This document shows positions 40,070 to 58,254 of a stretch of 64,000 bases of DNA, in pieces (the stretch's first letter is position 1; the number at the start of each line of letters is the position of its first letter). Position numbers and translations under genes: made by a program. The notes beneath the pieces are model-generated. The model made no database searches, had not been told where the DNA came from, and saw nothing but the letters and a program-made list of their open reading frames with translations. The DNA comes from Bdellovibrionota bacterium (GTDB taxonomy: Bacteria; Bdellovibrionota_C; UBA2361; JAFLCA01): assembly GCA_030584005.1 (NCBI GenBank), contig CP129486.1, positions 2,219,971 through 2,283,970 of the forward strand, in the 5' to 3' direction.

Positions 40070-41539
40070 CTACACCATCATCCAAGCCGGGGTATTCGAA
40101 GCATACTCAATCAGAGGCAGCGCCAACACGTGTGACCCTCCGGAGGTTTCGCTCTTTGATCCATCAACATTGACTTCAATTACGTACGGCTCGTCGTTAT
40201 CAGGCCCGCGTGAGACCATCCACTTGCTCTCTACCTGGACTTGTCGCCCATCACGTCGGGTATGCAGCAGTGTGCCCTCCCAGGCATCGCCAGCCATGAT
40301 GCGCGCATTGATCTCATCAAGGGGAGAGCTGAACTCCGTTCTCAGCAATTCATGGGAAATCTGCCCCACGGCCTCTGAGTCACGAAAACCGTAGTAGCGC
40401 TCAGCGCCGCTATTCCAAAAAAAGATGTTTCCGTCGAGGCTGCGCACCATTATTTGCCGTGCCGGTGTAGCGTAATCAACCGGCGCTACAGGCACATGCT
40501 TTGTCGATGAGAGGCGCTCGCCCTTCGCGGCAACGGAGAGATATCCATTCGCGACGTACCATTGCAGGATATCTTGTACCTCGTCGGCCCAGATTCGCTG
40601 AGGGGCAAAACCGAGCATGTCACGGGCCTTGGAAGCATCGAACCAACGATTCTTGGTGAAGAAATCAACGCGCCGTCGAAAGATCGGTGGCTCTATGTTA
40701 AAGGGAACACACAGCGTCTCGCAAATAGTGCCCAACAACTGCATAGGCTTGACGGGCAGGTGCAGCCAAGGCTTGTGCACTTCGAGGCTGGTCGATATCA
40801 GATCGACAAGCTCATGCAGCCGTACCGCACGTTCCCCGGCGATGATGAATACTTCGTTGTGGATCTGGGTGGCGTCGAGCCCCTGTACAAAAGCCCGCGC
40901 AAGATCTCGCACGTCGATAAAGTGAACGTAAGAGTCCCCTTTCCCCACATACATGAAGCGCTGCTGCGCAATCATGGAGAATAGTTTAAGCGTGCGCAGA
41001 TCGCCGGGGCCATAGATCATGGCTGGACGAATCACGATCCCTCGCATGTCTCCATTGGAGAAAAATCCGCGAGCTATCTCTTCGCCTTCAAGCTTGGTTC
41101 GCTGGTAGGCATCGCCCGGATTTAGTGGCGACGTCTCCACACCCGGGGGCTGCGCCACATCACCGTGCACACCAACCGTGGAGCAGTGCACGATGCGCTG
41201 TACTCCCGCATCTCGTGCCTCTTCGAACACAATTCGGGTACCCCCGGCGTTGATATCTCTGAATGTAGACTCCGGATGTCCGGCGGAACGAAACAACGCA
41301 GCGATATGAATAACCGATGATGCCCCTTTCAGGCACTCGCGTACCGCGGCTCGGTCACGGATATCGGCTACCACTGTCGGGATGCCTAGTGCTCTTAGCG
41401 CATGTGCATGGGAGTGAGAACGCACCATCGCCCGGACAGGGCGGCCCTGATCGCGTAGCAGTTTGACCACGTAGCCGCCGACAAATCCCGCAGCCCCGGT
41501 GACGACGATAGGTTTTGTTTCGGTACTATTTGATCCCAT
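40070..41539 (-). CDS. NAD-dependent epimerase/dehydratase fused to C-terminal PAS-like domain
   Basis: Rossmann GAAGFVGGYVV at the N-terminus with an SDR-extended pattern. C-terminal about 120 aa resemble a PAS fold (DGNIFFWNSGAERYYGF...). Confidence 0.65.
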   Translation of the reverse strand: MGSNSTETKPIVVTGAAGFVGGYVVKLLRDQGRPVRAMVRSHSHAHALRALGIPTVVADIRDRAAVRECLKGASSVIHIAALFRSAGHPESTFRDINAGGTRIVFEEARDAGVQRIVHCSTVGVHGDVAQPPGVETSPLNPGDAYQRTKLEGEEIARGFFSNGDMRGIVIRPAMIYGPGDLRTLKLFSMIAQQRFMYVGKGDSYVHFIDVRDLARAFVQGLDATQIHNEVFIIAGERAVRLHELVDLISTSLEVHKPWLHLPVKPMQLLGTICETLCVPFNIEPPIFRRRVDFFTKNRWFDASKARDMLGFAPQRIWADEVQDILQWYVANGYLSVAAKGERLSSTKHVPVAPVDYATPARQIMVRSLDGNIFFWNSGAERYYGFRDSEAVGQISHELLRTEFSSPLDEINARIMAGDAWEGTLLHTRRDGRQVQVESKWMVSRGPDNDEPYVIEVNVDGSKSETSGGSHVLALPLIEYASNTPAWMMV

Positions 41540-41629
41540 GCGAACGAAGCTAGAAAGTAGACGCAGAGCCTCGACCCCGTAATCCCTCTGGTCTCCGATG
41601 CCCACACGACATTGTAACTATAACTTTTC

Positions 41630-41944
41630 TCACCGATCGCGCCTATCCACAATCACCCCCAACGCATCAAGAGAGGGCGTGGGTGACTGTCCCTGCTGCG
41701 GCGCAGCGGGCGGCTGGGGCGCTGGCTCTGTTGATACTGAACCAGAGGAGCTCCATACCCGCATTTTCTTCCCCCCGCGCTCTACCACCTGCCCCGGGAG
41801 CACGGGTGGGAGTCTTCTATCGTTGGCTGCTTCAGCCTCTGCCTCGTCCGGTGCGGGAGCTGGATCAGTGTCCGCTCCAGATCCGTCGGCCCAAGCTGCT
41901 AACGGACAGAGCAAAAAGAGGAGATATAAGGCTCGCATTCGCAT
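41630..41944 (-). CDS. small secreted Pro/Ala-rich hypothetical protein
   Basis: Convincing signal peptide MRMRALYLLFLLCPLAAWA. Occupies the region that would otherwise be a 5' extension of purN. Confidence 0.4.
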   Translation of the reverse strand: MRMRALYLLFLLCPLAAWADGSGADTDPAPAPDEAEAEAANDRRLPPVLPGQVVERGGKKMRVWSSSGSVSTEPAPQPPAAPQQGQSPTPSLDALGVIVDRRDR

Positions 41945-42065
41945 AGGGACTCCCTTGAACTCATATTTGTCATGCTACCACGAACACTTATCCCTGTCCC
42001 AGGGAGCCCTGCAATCAGCCGCAGGTTCGATAGATAAACACATCGATTTTCTGTACGATGTCGCC

Positions 42066-42725
42066 ATGTTGCACGTCGTCATACTGATCTCCGGGCGTGG
42101 CTCGAATATGCGGAGCCTCGTGGAGCGCGCGCGGCACTATCGTGTCGTTGCCGTTGTATCGAACAAGGCCGAAGCGCCGGGGCTGGTCTTTGCGCGAGAA
42201 CGTGGCATTGAAACGGTTGTAGTACCTCGCGAACACTACGCAAGCCTCACCGCGCAGAAAGAAGCCCTGCTCTCAGCCGTGAAGACTTTTCATCCCTCCC
42301 TAGTAGCGCTCGCCGGGTACATGCAGATCATCGCTCCTAATTTCATTGCCGCCTTCTCTCAACGCATAGTAAATATTCACCCCTCTCTGCTGCCAAAGTA
42401 TCCGGGACTCGATACTCACGCCCGCGCAATTGCCGGAGGCGAGTCCGAGCATGGGTGTACTGTGCACCTGGTGGATGAGGGTGTGGATACGGGAATAATG
42501 CTTGCGCAGGCACCCTGTGCATGTTCGAGCCGTGATACCGTGCCCGAGTTATCGGATCGCGTGCTTGAGCGAGAGCATGTGTTGTACCCGTGGGTGCTCA
42601 ATAATATCGCCAGTGGTGATATCACGATTGGAACAGGTATCGTCCGCTACTCGGAGTCAGCCCAGCGGGAGGCAGCAGCCAAGGGGTTTCGCCTCAACAT
42701 GTCGAAAGATGGAGAAGCATTATGA
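42066..42725 (+). CDS. purN: phosphoribosylglycinamide formyltransferase
   Basis: HVVILISGRGSNMRSL start and formyl-transferase motifs (N...H...D). Internal Met chosen over the long ORF 41598. Confidence 0.8.
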   Translation: MLHVVILISGRGSNMRSLVERARHYRVVAVVSNKAEAPGLVFARERGIETVVVPREHYASLTAQKEALLSAVKTFHPSLVALAGYMQIIAPNFIAAFSQRIVNIHPSLLPKYPGLDTHARAIAGGESEHGCTVHLVDEGVDTGIMLAQAPCACSSRDTVPELSDRVLEREHVLYPWVLNNIASGDITIGTGIVRYSESAQREAAAKGFRLNMSKDGEAL

Positions 42726-43426
42726 CAATCCAAACTGTTCGCTACCTAGGTCACTCTGCTGTATTTCTGGAGGGGTCAAGTGGGGTTATCGCAATCGATC
42801 CGTGGCTCTCCTCCAACCCCTCCTGTCCCGCCGAGTATCGGTCTCCCAAACGCATTGATCTGATTGTGCTCTCGCATGGGCACTCCGATCACGCCTCTGA
42901 CGCCGCGCAGCTCGCCAAACAAACCGGCGCCAAGATAGCAGCCACCTTCGAACTGGCCTGCCTTCTGCAGTCAGAGGGAGTTCCAAGCGGGCAGCTCGTG
43001 ATGATGAACAAGGGCGGCACAGTGAATATGGGCAAGTTAAGTGTCTCGCTTACCCAAGCCTTCCATTCAAGCTCTTACGATACCTCGGACGGGCCGCGCT
43101 ATGCGGGGGAGCCGTGCGGGGTGGTGGTGCGTGATGGTCGTCATTCCTTTTATCACTCCGGAGATACAGCGCTTTTTAGTGATATGACGCTCATCGGGAC
43201 TCGCTATAAGCCCTCCATAGCTTTCGTTTGCATCGGAGATGTGTTTACTATGGGCCCTTCCGAAGCGGCTCAAGCGGTCCATATGCTAGGGGCGAAGGTG
43301 GCGGTTCCTATCCACTACGGGACCTTCCCTGCACTCACCGGGACCGCGGAAGAGTTTGCCCTCGAATGTGAACAGTACGGTATCCATGCGCGTGTAATGA
43401 ATCCCGGCGATAGCTGGGCGCTGTAA
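42722..43426 (+). CDS. MBL-fold metal-dependent hydrolase (UPF0173-like)
   Basis: HxHxDH motif LSHGHSDHASD. ATGA overlap with the purN stop. Confidence 0.7.
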   Translation: MTIQTVRYLGHSAVFLEGSSGVIAIDPWLSSNPSCPAEYRSPKRIDLIVLSHGHSDHASDAAQLAKQTGAKIAATFELACLLQSEGVPSGQLVMMNKGGTVNMGKLSVSLTQAFHSSSYDTSDGPRYAGEPCGVVVRDGRHSFYHSGDTALFSDMTLIGTRYKPSIAFVCIGDVFTMGPSEAAQAVHMLGAKVAVPIHYGTFPALTGTAEEFALECEQYGIHARVMNPGDSWAL

Positions 43427-43467
43427 TGGTGTAGCTCGGTAATCAGGATAGGTAAGGAGTAATCACA

Positions 43468-44709
43468 GTGAAAGGATCGCATCCCGTAATAACTATTCTC
43501 GGTTCAAACTCAGGCAATAATCTTGGCGATGCTGCGATTCTTTCGAGCATGCTTGAGAGCCTCTCCAGGGAGATCCCGGGGGCCGAGTTTCTCGTCCCTA
43601 CGACCAAGCCGTCTTTTATCGAGACCCACTATGCCCACCGTTACAACGTCAAGGCCATTAACATCATGCCGTGGACCGGCAGCATTCGTTTTCTGGGTAT
43701 CCCGACTTTTTGGGCTCTCATGCGGAGCGACTGCGCCCTGATCTGCGATGGAATTATTTTCGGCAAGAAGCTGCTCAACCCGGCCTTTAACTTTTTGATC
43801 GTCCTGGCCTTCGTGGTGCCCTTCGCCCGTCTCGTGGGCTGCATGCCCGTGTGCTACAGCTGCGGCATAGGTCCCTTCCATAGCTGGTTGAGCCGGGTGT
43901 TGGCTCGTTGGACCATTCAGCTTTGCGATCTGATCATGATGCGGGAGAACGACAGCAAACGACTGTGTGAGACGCTGGGGGTCACCAAACCGGTCTACCT
44001 CACCGGTGATGCTGCTTTTGTGAATCCCGTATCCGACGATGCGCGCGCCCGTGAGATCCTAGCCAAAGAGGGCATTGATCCCCAGATCCCCATTCTCGGC
44101 ATCAACGTGACAAGTTACCTTGATGGTTGGCTCGCTTCGAATGAGCGCGTGTCAGACCGCACGAACTTTATAACGACGGTGGCTGAGGGGGTGCGCGAAG
44201 CCACACGTGCGATGCAGGGTCCCTGTCAGGTGGTAGCATTCTCCACCCATCCCATGGACCTAGAAGCAGTCGAGCACTTGGCCTCGCTCACTAATGGCAA
44301 AGTGATTCACAACCGTGATTACCTGAGCCATGACATTCAGGCGGTGATGCGTCATTGCCAGCTCTTCGTGGGAATGCGTTTCCACTCCCTGATTCTTGCT
44401 TCGGCCGTTGGTGCTCCGATCGTGGCACTTGTGTATGCCCCTAAGGTCAAAGGTTTCATGCGGCTCTTGCAGTGCGAGGATCTCTCGATGGAGCTTAACA
44501 AGATTGATGTGGCTTCGCTGGCACAAACAATCGCCGATGCCTGGAGCCGCAGGGCCGAAATTAAATCCCGCCAACAGGCCGTCATTGATGGAATTAAGGC
44601 GGGAGCCCGCAAGGCCAACCGCATGATCATCGAGCGTTACTACCCGCACCTTCTAAAATCGCAAGAGGTCGAAGCTCCTTCGATGACAGCGACACGGATG
44701 GCATCGTAA
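43468..44709 (+). CDS. polysaccharide pyruvyl transferase family protein
   Basis: 413 aa. N-terminal GxNxGNxGD-type motif (ILGSNSGNNLGDAAI) typical of PF04230. Confidence 0.55.
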   Translation: MKGSHPVITILGSNSGNNLGDAAILSSMLESLSREIPGAEFLVPTTKPSFIETHYAHRYNVKAINIMPWTGSIRFLGIPTFWALMRSDCALICDGIIFGKKLLNPAFNFLIVLAFVVPFARLVGCMPVCYSCGIGPFHSWLSRVLARWTIQLCDLIMMRENDSKRLCETLGVTKPVYLTGDAAFVNPVSDDARAREILAKEGIDPQIPILGINVTSYLDGWLASNERVSDRTNFITTVAEGVREATRAMQGPCQVVAFSTHPMDLEAVEHLASLTNGKVIHNRDYLSHDIQAVMRHCQLFVGMRFHSLILASAVGAPIVALVYAPKVKGFMRLLQCEDLSMELNKIDVASLAQTIADAWSRRAEIKSRQQAVIDGIKAGARKANRMIIERYYPHLLKSQEVEAPSMTATRMAS

Positions 44710-44750
44710 TTTCGTTCCCCGACGTTCATCGGGGCCTTCCCTGAGCGTCC

Positions 44751-45134
44751 CTACCGCAATGACGCCATGGAGAACATCAGACACCATCCAATCGACCTGA
44801 GCGCAAACGCAGCGAGAGCGATCCGTATATGCCAGAGGCGCAGCACCGGATGCGCCGGCCCTAGAAAGAGCCGCCAACCGATTACACTTACCGGGATATA
44901 CATCAGCAGCGCCGCGAAGGAAGCAGCGATGTGTAGCTGCTGCCAGACAGTGAGCGGCTCCGTCCAGGCCGTCTGCACTGCCGACTTAGTCAGCTGCAGA
45001 TAAAGAACAAGGGTAAAGTCAGCCAGCATTCCCATGGACATGCAGGTCACATGCAGGGAACGACGATGCCTCACGACCACTCCGATTACGAGGAGCAGCC
45101 AGGAGGCCGTTGCGACACACATAGGGACTGACAT
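44751..45134 (-). CDS. hypothetical integral membrane protein
   Basis: 127 aa with 3-4 predicted TM helices. Confidence 0.35.
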   Translation of the reverse strand: MSVPMCVATASWLLLVIGVVVRHRRSLHVTCMSMGMLADFTLVLYLQLTKSAVQTAWTEPLTVWQQLHIAASFAALLMYIPVSVIGWRLFLGPAHPVLRLWHIRIALAAFALRSIGWCLMFSMASLR

Positions 45135-45221
45135 TACGATTTACGATCCGAACACCCAGCATGTTACCACCCGTCCTATCGGAGGACTGTGGACAGACCA
45201 AGGCTGTCCACAGGGTCGGGG

Positions 45222-45656
45222 TTATTGTACCTTCAATAATTCCACTTCAAAGATCAGATTGCTATTAGGCGGAATTACGGCTCCAGCACCCTGCGTACCG
45301 TAGCCAAGAGCTGCGGGAATATACAGAACTCGCTTCTCACCCTCTTTCATCCCCGTGACTCCCTGATCCCAGCCACGGATGACCTGCCCCGCGCCGAGGG
45401 GAAACGCAAATGGGGAGCCGCGGTCCAGCGAGCTGTCGAACTTCTTCCCTTTATTCCATCCATTCTCAGCCAGCCACCCTGTGTAATGCACCTCGACCTT
45501 CGAGCCCTTCGTGGCTTGTTTGCCCGATCCGGCCTTAAGCTCTTCAATGATGAGGCCCTCCGCAAGCTCCTTCTTCGAAGCCGCAACAGCCTCCTCAGAA
45601 TTGACCATAAGGTTTCCTAGCAACACTATAAGAACTGCAAACCGACGTAGTATCAT
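45222..45656 (-). CDS. FKBP-type peptidyl-prolyl cis-trans isomerase
   Basis: Signal peptide plus the FKBP domain (VHYTGWL..G..FDSS.DRG.PF.F.LGAGQVIRGWDQG...G). Confidence 0.75.
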   Translation of the reverse strand: MILRRFAVLIVLLGNLMVNSEEAVAASKKELAEGLIIEELKAGSGKQATKGSKVEVHYTGWLAENGWNKGKKFDSSLDRGSPFAFPLGAGQVIRGWDQGVTGMKEGEKRVLYIPAALGYGTQGAGAVIPPNSNLIFEVELLKVQ

Positions 45657-45824
45657 GTGTAGATTCCTCTAAGACATACAGACACCGAAGACCCACAAAC
45701 GATGCCCACATTTACTACGCCTGGAAGGGCTCGAAAAGAGCTCACGTAAGCTTCAAATCACTCTGCAACGCGTCCTCTGTACGTCACCTTCGCCATTGGT
45801 GCCACGATCTTACGTACAAGCGAG

Positions 45825-46331
45825 CTACGTTTTCACGATTAGCGCCACACACGTGGCGAGGATTCCCTCCTCCCTTCCGATACACCCCAACCGCTCGGCG
45901 GTAGTAGCCTTGATGCCCACACGCTCCACTGGCACCTTGAGAAGTGCAGATAACGATTCCTTCATGTGATCAATGCGCGGGGCTATGCGGGGAATCTCCG
46001 CCAGAAGCGTACAGTCAACATTCCACACGCTCCAATCGTCCGAGTGCAGCATCGTGACAACCTGCGCCAACATCCCCCGGCTATCGGCATTCTTCCAGCG
46101 TGCCGAGTCCGCGCCGGAGCTGGGAAACAGGTGTCCGATGTCAGCCTTGCCACATGCGCCCAGCAGCGCATCCATTACCGCGTGCAGAAGCACGTCGCCA
46201 TCCGAATGGCCCGCCGGCCCGTGACTAGCCTCGGGGAACTCCACCCCTCCCAAGACGCAGCGCCTTCCTTTAGCCAACGGATGGATATCGAGCCCCTGTC
46301 CAATTCTCAGATCCCTGAAGGGAAGCGACAT
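45825..46331 (-). CDS. ispF: 2-C-methyl-D-erythritol 2,4-cyclodiphosphate synthase
   Basis: RIGQGLDIHPL...GHSDGDVLLHAVMDALLGA, the IspF signature. Confidence 0.85.
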   Translation of the reverse strand: MSLPFRDLRIGQGLDIHPLAKGRRCVLGGVEFPEASHGPAGHSDGDVLLHAVMDALLGACGKADIGHLFPSSGADSARWKNADSRGMLAQVVTMLHSDDWSVWNVDCTLLAEIPRIAPRIDHMKESLSALLKVPVERVGIKATTAERLGCIGREEGILATCVALIVKT

Positions 46332-47091
46332 GAAAGTCCTCCATCGAAAGATTACGCACTACTTCAAAAGGCGGGGTCTCGTGCTCCTTGCTGAGCGCCT
46401 CGGCACGTCTCACGATAAGACATGCGGCGATGAACCGCGGCACATAACGCGCCGTCTGATCGCGCAGCGTTCTTTGGCGAGCAAGGGTCCAGAAATTATT
46501 GCTCTTCACCTTGCGCATGGCTCGCTCGACCGCCGAAGGACCTGCATTATATGCAGCCAGAACCAAATTCCAATCACGAAACTGCGCATACAGGTCCCGG
46601 AGATGCCTTGCAGCCGCTAAGGTCGAAAGCACGAGGTCCTGGCGCTGGTCTATCCCCCGCTCCACTCGTAGACCATACATACGCGCCGTTTGACTCATAA
46701 ACTGCCAAGGACCGGATGCACCGGCACTGCTTTTTGCGGTGAGCTTAAATCCACTCTCTATAAGGGCAACATTGAGCAGGTCCGGATGCAGCCCCTGATC
46801 ACGGAATATCTCATACAGCACAGGCTCAAACTGCATACGCCGCTCAAGTGCTTGCTGGACGAAGCTGGCCCGGCCTTTCAGTAGGAAGGCCAATTCACGC
46901 CGTACCTCGGTGTTCATTTCAAGCTGCGGTCCCGGCAACACCGCAAGCGGAGCGTGTGGAGACCTCTGCATCAAACGAGACCACAGCGATTGCTGCGGTG
47001 ATGGCGACTCATCCCCAAATGGGGAGTAGATATGGGACCGACCAATCGAGCTGCAACCCAGCTGGGTGGTACACCACAGCACAAGCAACAT
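46270..47091 (-). CDS. lytic transglycosylase (SLT domain) lipoprotein
   Basis: SLT catalytic region ESGFKLTAKSSAGASGPWQFM. Lipoprotein-like N-terminus LLVLWCTTQLGCSS. 3' end overlaps the ispF start. Confidence 0.65.
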   Translation of the reverse strand: MLLVLWCTTQLGCSSIGRSHIYSPFGDESPSPQQSLWSRLMQRSPHAPLAVLPGPQLEMNTEVRRELAFLLKGRASFVQQALERRMQFEPVLYEIFRDQGLHPDLLNVALIESGFKLTAKSSAGASGPWQFMSQTARMYGLRVERGIDQRQDLVLSTLAAARHLRDLYAQFRDWNLVLAAYNAGPSAVERAMRKVKSNNFWTLARQRTLRDQTARYVPRFIAACLIVRRAEALSKEHETPPFEVVRNLSMEDFHVASLQGSENWTGARYPSVG

Positions 47092-47601
47092 CCGCAGCGG
47101 GATCCAGAGGCATCGACTCCATTCCATAGGAACACATCACTTGGGGAAGAATTGAGAACACATCGGAACCTTACAGCTCCGAATGCCCTTCAACAGAATG
47201 GGAGCAGGCTAACAAGAAGCTCGCTCCTACTCAATTAAGCTTACTTCACGGGGCCTCAGGCAATTCAGCGGCTAACGCACTTTCCGCAAAGTGCCGCACA
47301 ACATCATCGGCGATTTCTGACCCTTGCACCCGCAATTCCCGCACCGCGCTAGATTCCCAACAGTCCTTGCGTCTCAGGGGTCCGATAACCCCATGCGGGG
47401 CCGGCCCTCGTACGTGCTATGCCGTCCGTGTCGATTTCGACTTCCAATCCAAGCCGATCCGAACTCAATATGCCCTCGCTGATCGTTTGCTCCCGCATGG
47501 AGTGCCTCGGCGCCCGCTCTGGGGGCCTGTGCAATAGAAGCTGAATAGTGCCGAACAAAAAGCAATACCTCTGAAGGCACTGCCGGGATGAAGCATTTAT
47601 A

Positions 47602-48819
47602 TTATTTGTGTCCAAAGACCAGCATCAATAGCTGTTTCATCCGAACAAGGATGCTCCTTTCGTGCTCTGCCCGTGGTGCCTGGGCCATTGCAGCGCTTTG
47701 AGTATCAACAGGTTGGTCATCAACCTTGGCAGTAGTAAGTACCCTCTGACGGGATTGCACTGCTAAGTCTGCTAAGTCGGACAGCGTCGACGTCCCGAGA
47801 TCTGTTGCAACGGCATCAAGAGGGCTTTTGGTCCCGACTCCTTTTTCTATCGTGACATGGGTATAAATCATAGTGGTTTTAAGATCGTTGTGACCAAGTA
47901 ACACCTGTACCGTTCGTACATCGGTCCCCGAATCGAGAAGGTGAGTTGCAAACGAGTGGCGACAGGTGTGGCAGGTCACTTTCTTTTGAATACCGGCTTT
48001 TTTGACCGCACAAGCCAAAGCATCTTGCATAATAGTTGGGTAGAGATGCCAGCGTCCTTCTTTTCCTGTACGTGGGTCCATTGAGCGCTTAAGCCAGGGG
48101 AAGACATACTGCCATTTCCATTCGGCGTCGGCGTTTGGATACTTTCTTTGAAGCGCATACGGAAGAATCGTGCGACCGAAGCCCTCCTTTATGTCTTGCC
48201 CGTGAACAACGTTCGCTTTCTCAAGTTGCTTTCGTAGTGGTCCTCTCAGGAACTTGGGGAGTGGGACGGTTCTATCTTTCTCGCCTTTGGCATCCCGAAC
48301 GATTATGAGATTCCGCTCGAAGTCTATATCTTTGACCCGGAGTTTTAACACCTCGATGAGCCGCATGCCGGTGCCATAGAGCAGGCATCCAATCAACCAC
48401 TGTACGCCAGACAGATTTTTTATGACTGCTATCATCTCATCAACACTTAATACAACAGGGATGTGCCTTGGCCTCTTGGCCCAGACGATTCCTTCAAACA
48501 TTCCAGGATCCATCTGAAGAACGTGTTTGTAGAGGTACACGATTCCGTTGAGCGCTTAATTCTGAGTCGCAGCGGACACGTTCTTGTAAGCTGCGAGGTA
48601 GCTCAGGAACTGAGTAATCTCCTCGGCTCCCATCTCTCTTGGGTGCTTGCCTCTGTGAAACGCAACAAACCGCTTGGCCCAATGGGTATATGTTTTCTCG
48701 GTAAATTGGCTCATATGCGCGAGGCGCATCTTCTCTCGCATTACCTGGAAGAGTCCCTTAGGCTTGCTCGCGGCGGGAGGGCCGAGGCTGATCCTTTCTC
48801 TGGGGTTGCATGGGTCCAT
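47602..48819 (-). pseudogene. intI: integron integrase IntI, interrupted by in-frame TAA (stop at 48556..48558)
   Basis: ORFs 48556..48819 and 47602..48540 are in the same frame. Together they align end-to-end with IntI: N-terminus YTHWAKRFVAFH; LLYGTGMRLIEVLKLRVKDIDF; KGEKDRTVPLP; the IntI-specific extra segment ALQRKYPNADAEWKWQYVFPW; the catalytic HTCRHSFATHLL..LLGHNDLKTTMIYTHV. TAA sits where IntI1 has Gln (..STHRQALAAL..). Confidence 0.85.
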
Positions 48820-49088
48820 ACTTCATATATTCGCAATCCCTAGGTAAAAGTTTCTGCTCCCTCATGAGCACACTGGGTTACTCACGAGTTCCAGTGATCT
48901 CGTGAGTCCGCTCTTGTGAGACCCTCCGATAATTCCAAGGGCCGATATATTCCATCGGAACTACTAGCAATTTGGAGGCTGGGTGGGACGCATTCCCAAG
49001 AGACTCTCGTAGACTCACAGGGTCGGTAGAGTCAGCTCACGAGACTTGACAGGATTACTCACGAGAATACGTCAGTAGTATGTTCTCC
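48820..49088 (+). other. attI-like region: intI-to-first-cassette spacer with ctcacgag repeats and GTTCTCC core at 49082
   Basis: Repeats ttactcacgag (48878), inverted ctcgtgag (48899), agctcacgag (49034), attactcacgag (49054). Core GTTCTCC at 49082..49088 is identical to the R' core of attC1. Confidence 0.5.
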
Positions 49089-49511
49089 CGCAAAATGAGT
49101 TTTATGAAAAGAACGCCGTTCAAACGAATTATATCGGAAGTTCCGCAGCAAGAGGCGCACGATGGTGTGGGATTGCGCCGAGTACTTTTGTCTTCCGATC
49201 TACCGATTGCAAAGAATCTGCAAGCTATGACCCATGGAATTATGAAGCCCAGAACTTCCTTGGGGTGGCATCTCCATGACGATAAGGATGAAGTAATTCT
49301 TCTCATCCGGGGAAATGGCGTGGTGCATATTGATGGTGGCGAAAGTTTGCCTTGCGCTGCTGGCGATGTTCTATACATACCTGCGGGTAACCGACATCGA
49401 ATTGAGAATTTAAGTGATTCTGAGCTTGAAGAGTTTTTCTTCCGCGTCTTTGCTGAAGCGGGAGAACAATCAAGCGCAGCCGACCGCCCTGACGGGCGGC
49501 GGCTGGCTTAA
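49080..49511 (+). CDS. cupin-domain protein (integron cassette 1)
   Basis: Two-His cupin motif HLHDDKDEVILLIRGNG...G..LYIPAGNRHRIEN. 3' end runs into attC1. Confidence 0.65.
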   Translation: MFSRKMSFMKRTPFKRIISEVPQQEAHDGVGLRRVLLSSDLPIAKNLQAMTHGIMKPRTSLGWHLHDDKDEVILLIRGNGVVHIDGGESLPCAAGDVLYIPAGNRHRIENLSDSELEEFFFRVFAEAGEQSSAADRPDGRRLA

Positions 49512-49521
49512 ACCGTTCTCC
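49461..49521 (+). other. attC site 1
   Basis: R'' GGAGAAC (49461) ... inverted core R' GTTCTCC (49515). Internal imperfect palindrome CAGCCGACCGCCC / GGGCGGCGGCTGG. Paralogous to the attC at 50591. Confidence 0.65.
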
Positions 49522-49523
49522 CG

Positions 49524-49820
49524 TTAAGCAGCCCTTTTCTTAACAGCACGTTCCAATAGCTCATGCATCAAACTTTGATAGGGCTTGCCTTGAATACCAG
49601 CGAGCTTTTTCAATTGAGCGAGCAATTCCGGTGCGATTCTAACAGCAATCAATTGTTTAGCCTTGCCCGTTGAGGGGCGTCCAACTCGACGCGCCTTTCG
49701 AAGCTGCTCATCGGTGAGCTCGGGAATATCGGTAAAATCGATATCAGCGTCTTTGGTATGCCGCGCGCTCTTTCCGTGATGCCTTCCTTGCGCTGATGAT
49801 TCGGATCGTTTCCTTCCCAT
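49524..49820 (-). CDS. brnA: BrnA-like antitoxin (RHH)
   Basis: 98 aa, basic N-terminus. C-terminal ribbon-helix-helix-like LIAVRIAPELLAQLKKLA..YQSLMHELLE. Lies downstream of and overlaps brnT. Start uncertain. Confidence 0.65.
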   Translation of the reverse strand: MGRKRSESSAQGRHHGKSARHTKDADIDFTDIPELTDEQLRKARRVGRPSTGKAKQLIAVRIAPELLAQLKKLAGIQGKPYQSLMHELLERAVKKRAA

Positions 49821-50028
49821 CGCTTGTTCTCCTAACCGTATAAATTATAGTGAGTACTTTGCCTTCTGCCGACCTTGCCACCCTAAAATGGCGCGGCTCA
49901 AGCTGGGAGTGTTTTTGATCGACGCCATCAAGCCCGTCGGTATCAGCGAACGCGGTCGCAGCTTCTTCGAATGAAATTGCATGCTTTTCGAAGTTGGCCA
50001 ACGCCTTCTTCACGTCCCATGTGAACAT
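49744..50028 (-). CDS. brnT: BrnT-family ribonuclease toxin (DUF497)
   Basis: MFTWDVKKALANFEKHAISFEEAATAF...RIISARKASRKERAAY is a typical BrnT sequence. Confidence 0.8.
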   Translation of the reverse strand: MFTWDVKKALANFEKHAISFEEAATAFADTDGLDGVDQKHSQLEPRHFRVARSAEGKVLTIIYTVRRTSDGKETIRIISARKASRKERAAYQRR

Positions 50029-50096
50029 ATTATCGTATATACGCTAATTATGCGAGTGTTTTATAGAGTTATCGCCAAAACGCTGCTAAAGTTGCG

Positions 50097-50153
50097 GGAG
50101 AACAATCGGATCGAGCCGAGGCGAGCGCGCCCGGCTCATCCTGGCCGTTATGG
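50097..50153 (+). other. attC site 2 (BrnTA cassette end)
   Basis: GGAGAAC (50097) ... palindrome GAGCCGAGGCGAGCGCGCCCGGCTC ... GTTATGG (50147). The next ORF's ATG sits in the R' core. Confidence 0.55.
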
Positions 50154-50596
50154 CGTTAATGATGCGAAGAAGCTTTATTTCATGGTTAGTTGGATCTGCG
50201 ATTGGATTGCTTTTAGGGATCATCGTCTACTCCACCATTCCAGGGGTAAAGGTATTACCAGCGATTCGAGGATCCGTCGGCGAGCTCTTTATAAGAGCAC
50301 TTGTCCTTCCGGCGGTGGAGCTCTTTTTCGGAATAGGTGCATTTCTGTTGGCTTTGGGACCAATCACCACTGGTCGTTGGGGATCACGCCCTATAGCATT
50401 TTTCTTAATATCGTTTGCGCTCTCGTTAGGCTTGTATGCAATTTTGTTTATTGCAGGGTGTCTAGCTATTGGTGGGTATTTTCAGGAAGCAGGATTGGCT
50501 TTCTTGCCCGTATTTCTTTTAGCTTGGCCTGTGATTGCGATTTACTCGCTTCCCGTTGTGTTGGGAGTTATAGCCTTAGGTCGGAGGACGCCATAA
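50150..50596 (+). CDS. hypothetical integral membrane protein (cassette)
   Basis: 148 aa with 4 hydrophobic helices. Stop codon lies within attC. Confidence 0.5.
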   Translation: MALMMRRSFISWLVGSAIGLLLGIIVYSTIPGVKVLPAIRGSVGELFIRALVLPAVELFFGIGAFLLALGPITTGRWGSRPIAFFLISFALSLGLYAILFIAGCLAIGGYFQEAGLAFLPVFLLAWPVIAIYSLPVVLGVIALGRRTP

Positions 50597-50651
50597 CAAT
50601 CAAGCCCAGCCGACCGCCCTGGCGGGCGACGGCTGGCTTTAACCGTTATGC
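50591..50651 (+). other. attC site 3
   Basis: CCATAAC (50591) ... CAGCCGACCGCCCTGGCGGGCGACGGCTGG ... GTTATGC (50645). Near-identical to attC1. Confidence 0.65.
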
Positions 50652-50896
50652 GCCTCAATGTACCTGGCTGCCCGGATCGATGCATAATAGTAATTATAGA
50701 TCCAAGACATTCTCCTTCTCCTATCGCGTATGAAGGTCTGCCTGTGCAGACCACGGATTTCTCTCGTTCTAGCTTTGACTTTCCGGAAGGCGGTCGTTTC
50801 AAGGTTATGTTGCGAATGTCTCACCGGAGGACCTACGGACTGGACGTTACACCTTGGATCAATGGCTTGCGTCACCAATAGCGACTAAGTACGCAT

Positions 50897-51280
50897 ATGA
50901 AGCATATGTTGTTACAAACTTCGCAGATGGTTCTTGCGTCGAAAGTATCGCTCGCCAATATAGTTCTCCCCGGCGCGGGCTATGAGACACGGGAACGGGA
51001 TAAGCACGATTGTTATCGTATAATGTTTTCGGGTCCCGGCGTAGCAGACACTCTTACAATGCGGGTTCTTAGCAAGACTCAGCCGCTAGAAGAAAAAGAA
51101 CTTGAAACGATGACCGCCATGAGTGCAATCATCCGAACAACTGATCATTCTCTAATCGAAGTAATGCATGATGCGCTTGTTCAAGATATTGTCTCTGGTC
51201 TTGATCTTCAAAGTTCCTTCCAACGTCTCGCAGATTTAGCTACAGTTCGGGGCGTGAGTGTAATGTTAACCGCGGGTTGA
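50897..51280 (+). CDS. hypothetical protein (cassette)
   Basis: 127-aa ORF. No motif recognised. 245 bp of unassigned sequence lies upstream inside the cassette, including the palindrome GGTCTGCCTGTGCAGACC. Confidence 0.4.
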   Translation: MKHMLLQTSQMVLASKVSLANIVLPGAGYETRERDKHDCYRIMFSGPGVADTLTMRVLSKTQPLEEKELETMTAMSAIIRTTDHSLIEVMHDALVQDIVSGLDLQSSFQRLADLATVRGVSVMLTAG

Positions 51281-51312
51281 ACCCGGGGTATAGAATGCGA
51301 TCTGATGAAGGC

Positions 51313-51407
51313 GCATAACAACGAAATCCACCAGATTGTCGCGCGCGACTTGCGAGGCAATTCGTGCTACAGTATGGCGCAACGACTGGTGATTTTATCC
51401 GTTATCC
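51313..51407 (+). other. attC site 4
   Basis: GCATAAC (51313) ... GTCGCGCGCGAC palindrome ... GTTATCC (51401). Confidence 0.6.
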
Positions 51408-51419
51408 TTTAAGTAAAGT

Positions 51420-51743
51420 ATGTTCGCGTCTTCTTTCTATATTATCATCGTAGTTTTGATTGCAATCTTGGGCATGCTCTCAAAATCTGCATTGGTGGTT
51501 CGAGAGGATCAGCGAGTATTGCTTTTTCGCCTGGGTCGATTCTCTACCGTAATGCACCCTGGCTTTCATCTTACGTTGCCATTTATAGACACCTTTAAGC
51601 TTGTTTCACTTGATTCGGCCCTCCCGGGGTGGAAGGGATTATCCTCTACGGAGATCCTCGATCGAGTGGTGGAAACTCAATTGGGAAAGGAGGTTCTTAA
51701 CGATTGGATTGCGAGGGGTCGAAAACCATTAAGGGAGATGTAG
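51420..51743 (+). CDS. SPFH/band-7-like N-terminal fragment protein (cassette)
   Basis: TM anchor then VVREDQRVLLFRLGRF...PGFHLTLPFID, which resembles the start of stomatin/HflC-family domains. Only 107 aa. Confidence 0.4.
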   Translation: MFASSFYIIIVVLIAILGMLSKSALVVREDQRVLLFRLGRFSTVMHPGFHLTLPFIDTFKLVSLDSALPGWKGLSSTEILDRVVETQLGKEVLNDWIARGRKPLREM

Positions 51744-51758
51744 GAGAGGTATTTTAAG

Positions 51759-51855
51759 GGATAACAAACGCCTCGACGGGAGGTGCGACCCGCGAGCGAC
51801 CGTAGAGATTTTAACGCCTGAGTGGGTCGCACCCCCGTCAGGCAGCCCGTTCTCT
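51759..51855 (+). other. attC site 5
   Basis: GGATAAC (51759) ... GGTGCGACCCGCGAGCGACC ... GGGTCGCACC ... GTTCTCT (51849). Paralogous to the attC at 59221. Confidence 0.6.
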
Positions 51856-51871
51856 CGCTAGGAGCAGCTGA

Positions 51872-52284
51872 ATGATTGAACAAGCCAAGACACGTGTGGA
51901 AACCCTGACTCCACCGAACACGCCTCGCCCTATTGGACCTTACAACCATATCGCAAAAGTTGGTGACTTTATCACTATTGGCGGGACGGCTGGAGTAGAC
52001 CCTTCGACTGGCAAACTTGCGGGGACGATGTTTATTCGCAGACCAAACAAATACTTTTGTCTTTCCAAGTAATGCTTGAAGCTATCGGCTCAGATCTTCG
52101 GCACGTCACCCACATTAATGTCTTCCTCGCCCGAATGAGCGACTTTGACAGAATGAACGAGGCATATGTTGAAATGATGGGTGATCACCGCCCAGCCCGC
52201 ACCGTTATTGGAGTAAATGAGTTGCCAAAGCCGGGAGTACTATTGACCATGAATTTAACGGCGGTGACTAAGAATGTTGGTTGA
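51872..52284 (+). pseudogene. RidA/YjgF-family (endoribonuclease L-PSP) cassette gene, frameshifted near 52060
   Basis: ORF 51872..52072 carries the RidA N-terminus (PIGPYNHIAKVGDFITIGGTAGVDPSTGKLAG). ORF 52057..52284 in another frame carries the C-terminus (HVTHINVFLARMSDFDRMNEAYVEMMGDHRPARTVIGVNELP). Confidence 0.7.
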
Positions 52285-52292
52285 GGTTGGCG

Positions 52293-52388
52293 AGAGAACA
52301 AATGGAGCGAGCGGAGGAAAGGTCGCAAACGTTTGTGAAGAATGGTAGAGTTGGAATGGCCTCTCCCCGCTCCTCCTCACCGTTATCC
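52293..52388 (+). other. attC site 6
   Basis: AGAGAAC (52293) ... GTTATCC (52382). Confidence 0.6.
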
Positions 52389-52396
52389 CGAACAGT

Positions 52397-52756
52397 ATGA
52401 GCCTTAGTCGTTATGCTGCTTACACCGTCTTCTTTCTCGCCATCTTATTTTTGGGCATCTGCGGATTACGGATGCAGTGCCGTTATGATTCCCAATGTGC
52501 CGATGCTTACAAGGACGAGGGTAAGCCGATAGTTCAGACGATTGCATCTTATCGCGGACTCAAGGGCAGATGTCCTGAAACACTATCCGAAATCGGATTC
52601 TCAGCGCCGTTCACAAGGTTTGGATGGTGGAAGTACTACCGAGCTCCCGATGGGCTGCAGTGCGGTCTCTCTCTCGGAGGAGATGGTATCTTCTTCATTG
52701 GATGGGATTCGTCGGGCCCTGGAGATAATGGCGATGGATGGATCCTTGGCGATTAG
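52397..52756 (+). CDS. hypothetical membrane-anchored protein (cassette)
   Basis: N-terminal TM segment YAAYTVFFLAILFLGICGL. Cys- and Trp-containing soluble part. Confidence 0.4.
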   Translation: MSLSRYAAYTVFFLAILFLGICGLRMQCRYDSQCADAYKDEGKPIVQTIASYRGLKGRCPETLSEIGFSAPFTRFGWWKYYRAPDGLQCGLSLGGDGIFFIGWDSSGPGDNGDGWILGD

Positions 52757-52785
52757 CGCGGGATAACAGCTATAAGGCCCCACCG

Positions 52786-54340
52786 AGTCAAGAAATAAAA
52801 AGAGAGTTCTGACCGAACCCTGGAGGCCTTTCTAATTCTTGAGAACCGCGCGTATTGCGAGGGTAGATTTCTAAGAACGGTTTGTAGGTGCCGCGAAGGC
52901 GTCTACACCAAACAGCTATTGGGGGTCGTTGAGCCACCAGAAACCCATCTGACACCTGCACGTAAGCTATGCAAGGAGATCGGGATAAGCGCAGAGGCTT
53001 TCACCAGTTGTTACGAGCCGAACGGAGGAGGCAGACGCGTAAGATCAGTTCCAAGCTATATGTAAAAGTGGGACGTGCGAGAGTTCTAGACAAACGTGGT
53101 GCGAGCTTTTTGGCGATGCAGCATGCGTGACGGACAAGCTTGAAGAGCTTACGAGTGTCGACGCGAATGGATTTGAATCGCCTATAAGTAGCTCAGTTAT
53201 ACCGCGAGACTCATCCCGCACTCCCGAAAAATCAGTTAAGCTGCGTTGGCATAAAATTTCTCAGCCTCCCACGGAGTTCGGCGTAAAAGGATAAAGTACA
53301 CAATTCTGGCGATTTTATGAGCGAGAACTGCGAGTGCTTTTGGCTTAGGATGCTTGCGGCAGAGAGCTTCGTACATTCTTTTTCCCTCTGCTGTGCGCAA
53401 AGAGAGCACAGCCGCTTCGGCGAATGCCCAGCGCAGGTGATGATTTCCGATTTTGGCACTCCCCCGGACACTGCCGCCTTTGGATTTCCGGCAGAGGTCT
53501 TCTGTGGCTTTATCAGCCGACAGTAAGATACAAAGTCCTGTACCGAGGGAAAGCGTGTGATGTCGTGAATCTCATAGAAGATAGTGGCAGAAAGGACAGG
53601 TCCGATGCCAGGAACGCTTCGGAGTAGTGCGATATTGAATCCAATCTCACCCTTGAGCTTTACTTGTGAAGTGACAAAGCTTTCGAGGTTATGGATCTGC
53701 GTAGTGAGATGTCCAATGGTGGCCAGGTCAGTCTCAACCATTCGGACAACAGCCTCGTCGCTGAATGGAATATCGAGTTCATTACGGCTCTTGTGATGAA
53801 CAAGATCAGTGGTAGGCGGTGGCAGGTTGTATTGCTGAAAGGTCATCTGAACATGGGCCAAGAGCTCTGACCGTCGATGAACGAAGAACAGCCTGCGTCG
53901 CATAAGGTCACGTGCTCCCCGCTGCTGTGCCGGGTAGACGAAGGCTTTTGGCAACATGCCACTCTTCAGAAGCATCGCAATTTTTTCAGAGTCGATTCGG
54001 TCATTGGCAGCTTTGCCACCGTGGATAGCTTTCATATACAGCGCATGCCCAAGGACAAACGTGATCCCCTCAGCCGCGCACACGTCAGCCAGCCAATACC
54101 AGCAGAACATGCACTCAACCGCTATGGCAAGGTTCTCGCGATACGGCGCAATGACCCTTAGCAACGCCTCCTTATTGGGCACATTCTTATGACACAGGAC
54201 TTTCCCTACCTTATCGACAATGCACACGTACATCGTCTTTGCATGCAGATCGATACCGCAGTAATATTCATGCTGTTCGTTATAGAACTTCATAAAAGCC
54301 TCCGTTTTGAGTTTCGCTCATGACCAATGAGCTTGCTCCC
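52786..54340 (-). mobile_element. IS110-family insertion sequence inserted within an attC site (boundaries approximate)
   Basis: Transposase ORF 53232..54293 lies between two halves of a single attC. The left half is GGATAACAGCTATAAGGCCCC at 52761. The right half is GGGGGCCTTTATGAGTG..GTCAATCC at about 54371, complementary to the left half. Total about 1.55 kb. Confidence 0.5.
53232..54293 (-). CDS. IS110-family transposase (DEDD/RuvC-like N-terminus)
   Basis: N-terminus CGIDLHAKTMYVCIV (the DEDD_Tnp_IS110 start). C-terminal block LRSVPGIGPVLSATIFYEIHDITRF...GNPKAAVSGG typical of IS110/IS1111 transposases. Confidence 0.85.
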   Translation of the reverse strand: MKFYNEQHEYYCGIDLHAKTMYVCIVDKVGKVLCHKNVPNKEALLRVIAPYRENLAIAVECMFCWYWLADVCAAEGITFVLGHALYMKAIHGGKAANDRIDSEKIAMLLKSGMLPKAFVYPAQQRGARDLMRRRLFFVHRRSELLAHVQMTFQQYNLPPPTTDLVHHKSRNELDIPFSDEAVVRMVETDLATIGHLTTQIHNLESFVTSQVKLKGEIGFNIALLRSVPGIGPVLSATIFYEIHDITRFPSVQDFVSYCRLIKPQKTSAGNPKAAVSGGVPKSEIITCAGHSPKRLCSLCAQQREKECTKLSAASILSQKHSQFSLIKSPELCTLSFYAELRGRLRNFMPTQLN

Positions 54341-54496
54341 ACTGTGGAACAACTCTTTCGATGCTCCAAGCGGGGGCCTTTATGAGTGTCAATCCGCTCC
54401 ACCAGATCTGCGCCCAGTGGATTAGATGGCAGCTCGAGAGTAAGATTTTGGGAGCAAACTGGTGAGCGTTTGCCTTGGTCCCTATCGGAAATATCC

Positions 54497-55447
54497 ATGT
54501 CACCGCAAAGACTATTATCGATTATTCGTCCTCACGGACTATTCTTATTACGCCATAAGCTAGCTTTCATATCGCAAACTGCCCCAGTGAAAGGCCTTCT
54601 CGGCCAGCGTAGTGTTGGGCTTTTTAAACTACTGTCCTGGCAACCCGGTGAACAAGCCTCAATTACCGAATTTGAAGACGTCCCGGTCGAGCGAATCTCT
54701 TGGGTGAGCTCAGTGGTCTCTGGCGAGAAGACCTATTTTCTGATTCATAACGGTCAAAGACATGGAGTCTTTGAGTTTACCAAATCGAAGCTTCGGCACG
54801 TTTGCTACCTGAGTGCAACCTCGAGATCTGTATGCATTTGGGATGACCAACTTTGCTCCCTTTCCTATGATATTGGGGGGCAGCTATTGCTTGAATACAT
54901 TGATCCGACGACTGGGAACATATTGTCACGAGCCTTGGCTGGACGAGGAGCAATAAAAAGGTCTGACCTATTGTCGACCATTCCTTCGGGCATCGTAGTC
55001 AGTACCGGGGAGCGGCTCCTCCTTTGTCGGCCAGAATCAGAAAGCATGGAAGAGATAATTGCCGGCGAGATCTCTCATGGCTGTTTGGCCATAGGGGATG
55101 ACTTATACTTCGTCAAGGAATGGAGAAAGGTATTCCACATGAATCTTGCAACACGAAAGATTGAGCTGGTTTCGGAAGAACCGAATCGCGTTCATTTCAT
55201 TGGAGCGAGTGGCGCCGGGCCGTTCTGGTGGTGTGGAGATGATCAGCAAGCAGAGGTGCGCCGCGCATCTGGTACGCATGTTGAAACAGTCCACACCATT
55301 CCTGGTTCGTTTCATCCGCCAATCCTTGTAGACGATTCACTGTACTGGATGTCATATCCAAAGAATGAAGGTCAAATTGGAATATTGATGGGTTTAAAAG
55401 TTGCGATGTCGGGGCAACATAGGGATCAACGCGAGAATTTTGCATAA
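54497..55447 (+). CDS. hypothetical protein (cassette, upstream partner of the deaminase)
   Basis: ORF track gives 54386..55447 starting at GTG inside the attC remnant. First ATG Met is MSPQRLL at 54497. About 316 aa, beta-rich. No motif recognised. Confidence 0.45.
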   Translation: MSPQRLLSIIRPHGLFLLRHKLAFISQTAPVKGLLGQRSVGLFKLLSWQPGEQASITEFEDVPVERISWVSSVVSGEKTYFLIHNGQRHGVFEFTKSKLRHVCYLSATSRSVCIWDDQLCSLSYDIGGQLLLEYIDPTTGNILSRALAGRGAIKRSDLLSTIPSGIVVSTGERLLLCRPESESMEEIIAGEISHGCLAIGDDLYFVKEWRKVFHMNLATRKIELVSEEPNRVHFIGASGAGPFWWCGDDQQAEVRRASGTHVETVHTIPGSFHPPILVDDSLYWMSYPKNEGQIGILMGLKVAMSGQHRDQRENFA

Positions 55448-55494
55448 GGCGAAATTCCGGACTATCTTGTGCCATTATATGCCTAAGAGTTCCC

Positions 55495-55956
55495 ATGGAT
55501 CATCTTCCCCACATAAGGCGCGCGATTGAATTGGCTGCGCTAGCTCGTGAGCGCGGCGACGAGCCCTTTGGTGCGCTATTGGTATTGGACAACAGAGAAA
55601 TTCTCTGCGCGGAGAACTCTGTACGCCTTGCTAGAGATCCAACGAACCACGCCGAGATGAATCTCGTGCGCAAAGCCTGGCAAGAACTGTCACCATCAGT
55701 GATTGCAGATTCGATTCTTTATACATCGACCGAGCCTTGTCCTATGTGCACTGGAGCTATTTTTTGGTCGGGGATCCGTCGAGTGGTTTTCTCGTTCTCG
55801 GCAGAAGATCTGGGAAAGATGGCAAATGACAAATTTTGCGGTCCATGTAGCGTTCTGTTCAATCGTGCAGAGCAGAAGACCGAAGTCATTGGCCCGATAT
55901 TAGCGGAAGAGGGTCGCAGAGTGCACGAGGGATTTTGGAGTAGCGTCAACAGATAA
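55495..55956 (+). CDS. CMP/dCMP-type zinc deaminase (guanine deaminase / TadA-like)
   Basis: HAE...PCxxC zinc-binding signature (NHAEMNLVRKA ... EPCPMCTGAIFWSGI). 153 aa. Starts 47 nt after the upstream ORF with no attC between them. Confidence 0.75.
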   Translation: MDHLPHIRRAIELAALARERGDEPFGALLVLDNREILCAENSVRLARDPTNHAEMNLVRKAWQELSPSVIADSILYTSTEPCPMCTGAIFWSGIRRVVFSFSAEDLGKMANDKFCGPCSVLFNRAEQKTEVIGPILAEEGRRVHEGFWSSVNR

Positions 55957-56048
55957 CAACTGGCGCCACACGGAGGCGAAGCCGCGTGAGCTCTGTGCTG
56001 GTGTGTAGCCACGTAATGGCTTCGCCCCGATGCGCGAAACCGTTCTAA
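55951..56048 (+). other. attC site
   Basis: AGATAAC (55951, overlapping the stop) ... GGAGGCGAAGCCGCGTG / CACGTAATGGCTTCGCC ... GTTCTAA (56042). Confidence 0.6.
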
Positions 56049-56066
56049 GTATAGGAGGGGCATTTT

Positions 56067-56759
56067 GTGAACATTACTCTCATCGGGATGTCCAATTTAG
56101 GAAAGACGCACTGGGCGACCAGATTGGAAACTGAATGTGGCTTTCGTCGCATCGATTGCGATGCGCTTGTAGAAGCCGCTCTTAGCCCCTATCTCCAAAC
56201 AAAGGGATACTCGGGGGTGCAGGACGTGGCGAAATGGATGGGGCAACCGTTTGACGAGCAATATCCTGCGACGAGCCAAGAGTTCGTTCGATGTGAGCGT
56301 GAGGTAATGCTCCAAATTGTTAACGTACTTCGACAGGCGCAAATCAAAGATGGGCCACCTCTAGTTGTAGATACTTGCGGAAGCGTTATCTACGCCGGTG
56401 ATGACATCAGAAAATCACTGTGCGAGTTGACCCATGTTGTCTATCTAGAGGCGTCCGACGCGCATAGAGCTCAACTCTTCGAGCGTTATATGGCTGAACC
56501 AAAGCCTGTCATTTGGGGTTCGGTTTTCAGTCAAGGACGTGGCGAGACTCCTCATGAGGCTCTTGCGCGTTGTTATCCGCAGCTCTTATCCTCCCGCGCG
56601 CGCCTCTATGAAGAGTGGTCGCACGTCAAGATACCGTTTGAGACGCATAGAGCAGTGGGTATCTCTCCAGCATCGGTTTTTTCGGAGCTGCAGCTGGGCT
56701 CCGGCAAACCAACTCAAGCAGAACGGCCCGGCGCTCAGCATGGAATTCAAGGAAGATAA
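56067..56759 (+). CDS. P-loop NTPase, shikimate-kinase-like / small-molecule kinase family (cassette)
   Basis: Walker A IGMSNLGKTH near the N-terminus. Fold resembles shikimate, gluconate or antibiotic kinases of the NMP-kinase superfamily. Confidence 0.5.
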   Translation: MNITLIGMSNLGKTHWATRLETECGFRRIDCDALVEAALSPYLQTKGYSGVQDVAKWMGQPFDEQYPATSQEFVRCEREVMLQIVNVLRQAQIKDGPPLVVDTCGSVIYAGDDIRKSLCELTHVVYLEASDAHRAQLFERYMAEPKPVIWGSVFSQGRGETPHEALARCYPQLLSSRARLYEEWSHVKIPFETHRAVGISPASVFSELQLGSGKPTQAERPGAQHGIQGR

Positions 56760-58239: not shown

Positions 58240-58254
58240 TTGTAAGCGAACTGT

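Follow-up and report, generated by a model that had tools for sequence, protein, structure and literature searches.

A chromosomal integron integrase gene (intI) that is interrupted by one in-frame stop codon raises the question of whether the recombinase has really been lost, and when, or whether the stop reflects a sequencing error or a codon that is bypassed in translation. In the present study, this question was asked of a 64-kb stretch of DNA from an uncultured member of the Bdellovibrionota (hereafter the window; 64,000 nucleotides), for which a first-pass annotation had proposed that intI was inactivated by a TAA in place of a conserved Gln codon and that this fits a long, vertically inherited and frozen cassette array. 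The evidence presented below makes it very probable that a CAA-to-TAA nonsense mutation has inactivated intI of this chromosomal integron, that the TAA is a genuine, recent and segregating allele, and that no working IntI is produced from the locus.

Two pieces of one reading frame

The interrupted gene comprises the following features.

47602..48819, minus strand: intI locus (integron integrase pseudogene), 405 codons with the stop read as Gln
48556..48558, minus strand: premature ochre stop TAA at codon 88, in place of CAA (Gln), from the direct sequence and contig alleles
48559..48819, minus strand: upstream piece, 87 codons, with most of the N-terminal SAM-like DNA-binding domain (list of open reading frames, PF13495)
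47602..48540, minus strand: downstream piece, an ORF of 312 codons from GTG, with the whole catalytic domain and the IntI-specific extra domain (list of open reading frames, PF00589)

The plus strand reads TTA at 48556..48558, which is TAA on the minus strand. The ORF list gives an 87-aa piece starting with ATG at 48556..48819 (minus strand, stop included) and a 312-aa piece at 47602..48540 (minus strand) that begins at GTG, as had been claimed. Translation of the minus strand from 48900 to 47599 yields one continuous frame (...MDPCNPRER...YKNVSAATQN*ALNGIVYLYKHVLQMDPG...GHK*), in which the peptide across the stop is ...KNVSAATQN*ALNGIVYLYKHVL.... From the stop to the GTG at 48540 there are 15 bases, which make five sense codons (ALNGI), and the two pieces are therefore in frame. 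Thus, the coordinates, frame and quoted peptide of the first-pass annotation are all correct by direct translation, and the pieces share a single frame, with the TAA and five sense codons between them. The start ATG is common to the window and to an intact allele of the same gene (contig L002, described below). Neither piece was found in the protein collection by exact look-up or among the NCBI proteins of the metagenome-assembled genome (MAG), whereas the neighbouring cassette proteins are present in the latter set (WKZ57062-WKZ57069, locus tags QY326_100xx); this absence fits an annotation of intI as a pseudogene.

The interrupted gene encodes an integron integrase

Family searches were performed with the 405-residue protein in which Gln was placed at the stop. 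The NCBIfam model TIGR02249, "integron integrase", was matched with 416.9 bits against a curated cutoff of 265, over model positions 3-314 of 315, and the N-terminal and catalytic domains were located at residues 23-103 (PF13495) and 130-323 (PF00589), respectively. The solved structure of VchIntIA from Vibrio cholerae (PDB 2a3v) was matched with an E-value of 5e-76; the alignment runs from residue 27 to residue 335 (residues 27-335) and takes in the integron-specific extra domain, for which an ungapped-style alignment places ALQRKYPNADAEWKWQYVFPWLKRSMDP against ALKEKYPNAPYEFRWHYLFPSFQLSLDP. The catalytic residues R153, K178, H284, R287, H310 and Y319 are all kept, and each lies in an alignment column with a conservation of 99% or more. 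The gene is in divergent orientation next to an attC array and adjoins a presumed attI. These results bear out the earlier identification of the gene as an integron integrase; the one departure from a regular member of the family is that the frame is interrupted, by the in-frame TAA at codon 88. No second intI or paralogue was detected by tblastn within the 64-kb window. Among the GTDB species-representative genomes, from which the window's own species is absent, the nearest IntI is 81% identical and belongs to a Bdellovibrionales MAG, and the nearest ones are all from Bdellovibrionota MAGs, at no more than 81%. At the C-terminus, a tail of about 70 residues (47602..47810, minus strand) without a family match follows the conserved SPLD motif; diverged versions of it occur in close relatives, among them the homologues P0006 and P0123.

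The residue lost to the stop was assessed in an alignment of 120 database homologues and IntI1 (A1). Gln occupies this column in all 120 rows that cover it, IntI1 among them, one further row being gapped, and the rest of the T-Q-N-Q-A-L block around it (T, Q, N, A and L) is conserved in 119-120 of 121. VchIntIA (2a3v) has Leu at this position. The claim that the stop replaces a conserved Gln codon CAA is therefore upheld with one qualification: judged from these sequences, the Gln is conserved in a large clade and in IntI1, yet it is not universal among integron integrases. The stop precedes PF00589, and so the lesion lies upstream of the catalytic domain and removes the whole of it from the primary product.

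The TAA is carried by a second haplotype

Three alleles were found for the species, two with TAA (the window and contig L001) and one with CAA (contig L002). L001, from the Logan assembly of run SRR16693997 (9160 nt), covers window positions 39867..49026 with 98.8% identity and 109 mismatches and carries the identical TAA (...ACTCAGAATTAAGCGCTC...). The contig was reached through the homologue search, which returned its 299-aa product P0001, 100% identical to the downstream intI piece. P0123 (375 aa) falls in the same 90% protein cluster as P0001 and starts at a later Met than the shared ATG. The source of P0123 is L002 (SRR10807626, 5071 nt), which is 99.1% identical to window positions 43958..49026, has CAA at codon 88 and can be read without interruption from the shared ATG for about 406 codons. 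Because L002 is nearly identical and has CAA at codon 88, the stop can be traced to a single C-to-T transition. A scan of JGI metagenomes for both alleles with the pattern ACTCAGAATNAAGCGCTCAACGG gave 0 hits.

Inside intI, the window differs from L001 at four positions, of which three are synonymous and one is a radical replacement found in the window only.

48094..48096, minus strand: Ser242-to-Trp (TCG to TGG), window only; L001 and L002 keep TCG

The site of residue 242 holds Ser or Ala in 119 of 121 homologues. The replacement, which the comparison of alleles places after the nonsense mutation and in the window lineage alone, is of a type that relaxed constraint would be expected to allow.

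These alleles bear directly on the possibility that the stop is a sequencing or assembly error, in which case the true base would be C and the integrase would be intact in the genome of the window. The source of the window, a 2.28-Mb MAG in a single contig, may have been assembled from long reads, and the nearest intact allele is only one base different at codon 88; both points would suit an error. However, L001, an independently assembled haplotype from a separate public run that is 1.2% divergent, has the same T yet 109 other differences, four of them inside intI, and the radical S242W change at a conserved site in the window lineage fits relaxed constraint. Run SRR16693997 also yields contig L085, which is 100% identical to part of the array in the window, and the run is thus a mixture of strains. 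A chimeric de Bruijn path in L001 at the stop base is nevertheless unlikely, given that L001 has the non-window variant at 109 further sites. An error, which had been raised as an alternative, is therefore highly improbable. In other words, the TAA is a genuine allele on two distinguishable haplotypes and is absent from a third.

Translation beyond the stop

If the stop is genuine, a full-length or truncated integrase might still be produced from it in more than one way. First, the TAA might not be read as a stop. Genome-wide reassignment was considered and rejected: TAA ends 15 of the 48 long ORFs in the window, all three stop codons are used as terminators, and the genetic code is therefore standard.

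Second, programmed or tolerated read-through, proposed earlier as another alternative, would allow a low level of UAA suppression to supply a trickle of full-length IntI and so act as a throttle on a costly recombinase. The rest of intI is intact, with all catalytic residues kept, and the class 2 gene intI2 offers a precedent, as it is silenced by an internal stop whose suppression restores activity (PMC2426708) and a throttle role has been proposed for its ochre codon. Nevertheless, the stop is not conserved among orthologues, since the 99%-identical sister allele has CAA and Gln stands in 120 of 120 covering homologues. The context is UAA followed by G, and UAA is the tightest stop codon. 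No significant stimulatory structure was found: a 131-nt RNA around the stop folds with z = -1.9, with 9 of 200 shuffles folding at least as well, and the MFE fold leaves the approximately ten nucleotides 3' of the stop without a paired base. No Rfam match was obtained in 47000..50200. No suppressor tRNA was found within the 64-kb window, the sole tRNA there being Leu-GAG. Because the stop is absent from the nearest allele and the aligned homologues, TAA is an ordinary terminator, UAA-G lacks a significant structure and no suppressor tRNA occurs in the window, programmed read-through is highly unlikely.

Third, ribosomes might re-initiate at the GTG at 48540 or at the next two ATGs (codons 103 and 107) and produce an N-truncated integrase with residual or altered activity. 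The 312-codon ORF, which begins five codons after the stop, holds the whole catalytic and IntI-specific domains, and a gene caller predicted the 299-aa product P0001 from the codon-107 ATG. However, sequence inspection revealed no convincing Shine-Dalgarno motif before any of these three candidate starts, and the product would be without most of the N-terminal domain PF13495 (residues 23-103), which supplies one half of the clamp that tyrosine recombinases form on DNA. In the window lineage, S242W also suggests that constraint has gone from the downstream part. Re-initiation is thus very unlikely, and the downstream piece is not expected to be translated. Read-through and re-initiation are both unsupported, and the 87-residue product, which is without any of the catalytic domain, leads us to conclude that the locus probably yields no working IntI. 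The inactivation of intI by the in-frame TAA is accordingly well supported, the stop being real, preceding PF00589 and recurring in a second haplotype.

Age of the lesion

Between the window and L002, 19 codons of intI differ, comprising 1 nonsense, 7 non-synonymous and 11 synonymous changes. Compared by the Nei-Gojobori method, the TAA and CAA alleles give a dN/dS of 0.18 with a dS of 0.041, which suggests that the gene was still functional, and subject to purifying selection, during most of their divergence. Besides the TAA, intI has no further stop and no frameshift. Taken together, the lack of a second lesion and the dN/dS of 0.18 against the intact allele point to a recent inactivation, a timing that we infer from these substitution patterns.

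Spacer, presumed attI and cassette array

The region to the right of intI holds the presumed recombination site and the cassettes, and GC content falls from approximately 0.56 to approximately 0.50 right of intI, at the array.

48820..49085, strand not assigned: intI-to-cassette spacer with the presumed attI (repeats and a match to the R' consensus)

Five CTCACGAG-type motifs lie in the spacer at 48861..49066. The interval 48880..48907 contains a 12-nt inverted repeat (palindrome) of such motifs, its arms separated by 4 nt, and the copies at 49036 and 49058, which are direct repeats, lie just upstream of the putative attI crossover; the motifs are candidate IntI-binding or operator sites. The sequence ATGTTCTCC at 49081..49089 matches the attC R' box (consensus CCGTT[A/C]TCC), and GTT at 49083..49085 is likely to be the attI crossover. 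A promoter scan of the spacer between intI and the first cassette performed no better than on shuffled sequence.

For the array, a first attC scan, energy-based and motif-based, was too noisy and was replaced by a covariance model. The attC repeat family [A/G]A[T/G]AACA...CCGTT[A/C]T was aligned (A2) and 11 sites were used to build this model (R1), which was searched over the whole 64 kb with filters off; sites at E<=4e-4 and weaker ones are listed separately.

49461..63281, plus strand: cassette array with at least 13 attC (R1)
49461-49521, 50097-50153, 50591-50651, 51313-51407 and 51759-51855, plus strand: attC sites, E<=4e-4 (R1)
52293-52388, 55951-56048, 56754-56851 and 57698-57768, plus strand: attC sites, E<=4e-4 (R1)
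58145-58239, 59221-59316, 59967-60021 and 63225-63281, plus strand: attC sites, E<=4e-4 (R1)
57381-57442 and 62039-62093, plus strand: two weaker attC sites (R1)
54395..54469: degraded attC (14 bits), which adjoins the IS110 ORF
53232..54293, minus strand: IS110-family transposase ORF inside the array (DEDD_Tnp_IS110 and Transposase_20)
49524..50028, minus strand: BrnT toxin and BrnA antitoxin pair in the second cassette, opposite to the orientation of the array
50150..50596, plus strand: 148-aa ORF, a predicted membrane protein, which fills the third cassette

No attC was found in the 64-kb window outside 49461..63281, and none left of 49000. The array is approximately 14 kb long and probably continues past the end of the window. 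Its cassettes include a cupin, the reverse-oriented BrnT/BrnA pair, an APH-family kinase, a GNAT acetyltransferase and a deaminase, and toxin-antitoxin cassettes are typical of sedentary chromosomal integrons. The 148-aa ORF is absent from the NCBI proteins of the MAG, unlike its neighbours, and is therefore probably an unannotated cassette gene. When the cupin protein of the window was looked up by exact match in the contig index, no record was returned. The Transposase_20 domain of the IS110 ORF is cut at position 50 of 87, and the ORF is probably frameshifted.

Cassette turnover and recombination

The comparison with public contigs revealed both conservation and change in the array. L084, from the sample that carries the CAA allele, corresponds to window positions 54472..61956 at 99.5% identity, L085 to 54365..61956 at 100%, and L088 to 50122..52425 at 99.8%. 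L083, from the same run as L001, agrees with the window over 49022..50151; beyond the R' box of the second attC its cassettes are different, and an attC of its own follows further on in this divergent part. Upstream of 54472, L084 has an intact attC and a cassette for a periplasmic-binding protein (Peripla_BP_6), where the window has the IS110 transposase gene and the degraded attC. Since L083 and L084 depart from the window precisely at attC boundaries, cassette content has changed on a timescale of about 1% divergence. If L001 and L083 derive from one genome, cassette content has changed among carriers of the TAA, and such change, if true, requires an integrase in trans or homologous recombination.

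The backbone is a recombination mosaic. L002 shows 0 differences from the window in 43958..46242 and 39 in 47011..49026, whereas L001 shows 5 differences in 47011..49026 and 84 in 45200..46242. Because of this mosaic, the TAA allele may have moved between backgrounds by homologous recombination.

A structural feature was also observed at the contig ends. L001 and L002, although from different runs, both end at window position 49026, and L083 starts at 49022. The 5-nt overlap of these ends, GTCGG, lies in the intI-attI spacer and not at the predicted attI crossover, and the shared break at 49022..49026 is of the kind that would result from a structural variant, for example a polymorphic insertion flanked by a 5-bp target duplication. 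No repeat that would explain the break was found in the window.

Discussion

Thus, the present study describes a chromosomal integron whose integrase gene appears to have been switched off by one base change. The following sequence of events is proposed. A single C-to-T transition converted Gln codon 88 (CAA) into an ochre stop, TAA. Ribosomes that begin at the normal start would then terminate after 87 residues, and this would be the only product expected from normal initiation. Recombinase activity would be lost, as far as can be judged from the gene sequence, and cassette excision and insertion at this integron would stop unless an integrase were supplied from elsewhere. The array was built while the integrase was active, and the integrase appears to have been lost only recently.

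The view of a frozen and vertically inherited array is partly supported by these results. The array is indeed long, with at least 13 attC over approximately 14 kb, and cassette order is conserved over 54472..61956 (99.5%) and 50122..52425 (99.8%). However, the inactivation is recent (dN/dS of 0.18, no second lesion), L083 and L084 differ at attC junctions, and the backbone is a recombination mosaic; a reading of the array as long frozen is thus too strong.

An adaptive interpretation may also be considered, in which the TAA is a selected, segregating off-state, integrase loss spreads horizontally and cassettes are turned over by way of CAA strains. This interpretation draws on the apparent transfer of a 2-kb segment by homologous recombination, on the presence of at least two haplotypes and on carriers that may have different arrays. 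If true, the locus would represent an on/off polymorphism at the level of the population, with the cost of the integron set against evolvability. Selection of this kind seems unlikely at present, and a recent nonsense inactivation that segregates in the species is the reading that we prefer. Whether integrase loss is selected could be tested by a simple population-genetic comparison of the public contigs with TAA and CAA, and a segregating on/off polymorphism in a recombining natural population is a mildly interesting angle in itself.

Nonsense loss of intI is an ordinary and well-documented route to the shut-off of an integron, and the present case is one more instance of a known phenomenon. 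Nemergut et al. 2008 (PMC2426708) classed nearly a third of intI genes as pseudogenes that bear an internal stop or frameshift, and intI pseudogenes next to arrays have been reported by the authors of IntegronFinder (PMC4889954). Functional and non-functional intI orthologues coexist within Xanthomonas species (PMC2426708), and the account by Gillings et al. 2005 of Xanthomonas chromosomal integrons with an inactivated intI is summarised in PMC12444791. That 2025 paper itself surveyed 706 Xanthomonas genomes and showed repeated, lineage-specific inactivation of intI, early stop codons included, after which arrays were more stable. For the Bdellovibrionota, a full-text literature search that combined the phylum with integron and attC returned only incidental mentions and no paper describing an integron in the phylum. 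The present locus adds one clean, dated-looking example of frequent intI inactivation with active and inactive alleles in one species. It is also of value for annotation: the locus should be recorded as a complete integron with a pseudogenised intI, not as a CALIN and not as two separate genes.

Among known systems, the integrons of Xanthomonas are similar in that they are sedentary and chromosomal, intI is lost there by stop codon, frameshift or deletion, working and broken orthologues are found among close strains, and the array was dynamic before inactivation. They differ in several respects: the locus described herein belongs to the phylum Bdellovibrionota, with an integrase that is at most 81% identical to that of any species-representative genome; strains of Xanthomonas that share a lesion usually have identical arrays, whereas related contigs differ here at attC junctions; and the present lesion sits in a recombination mosaic. 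The class 2 integrase gene intI2 of the Tn7 family is likewise intact except for one in-frame stop, and its activity would in principle be recoverable by suppression or reversion. The stop of intI2 is at codon 179, is fixed in almost all class 2 integrons and is carried on a mobile transposon. In contrast, the stop described herein is at codon 88, in the N-terminal domain, and is polymorphic and chromosomal, and the two events are independent. Finally, the functional integrases VchIntIA (PDB 2a3v) and IntI1 share with the present gene the domain architecture, the IntI-specific extra domain, the RKHRHY set of catalytic residues and the position of a gene facing attI and the attC array, whereas the present gene is interrupted and has an additional C-terminal tail of about 70 residues that is common to its close relatives.
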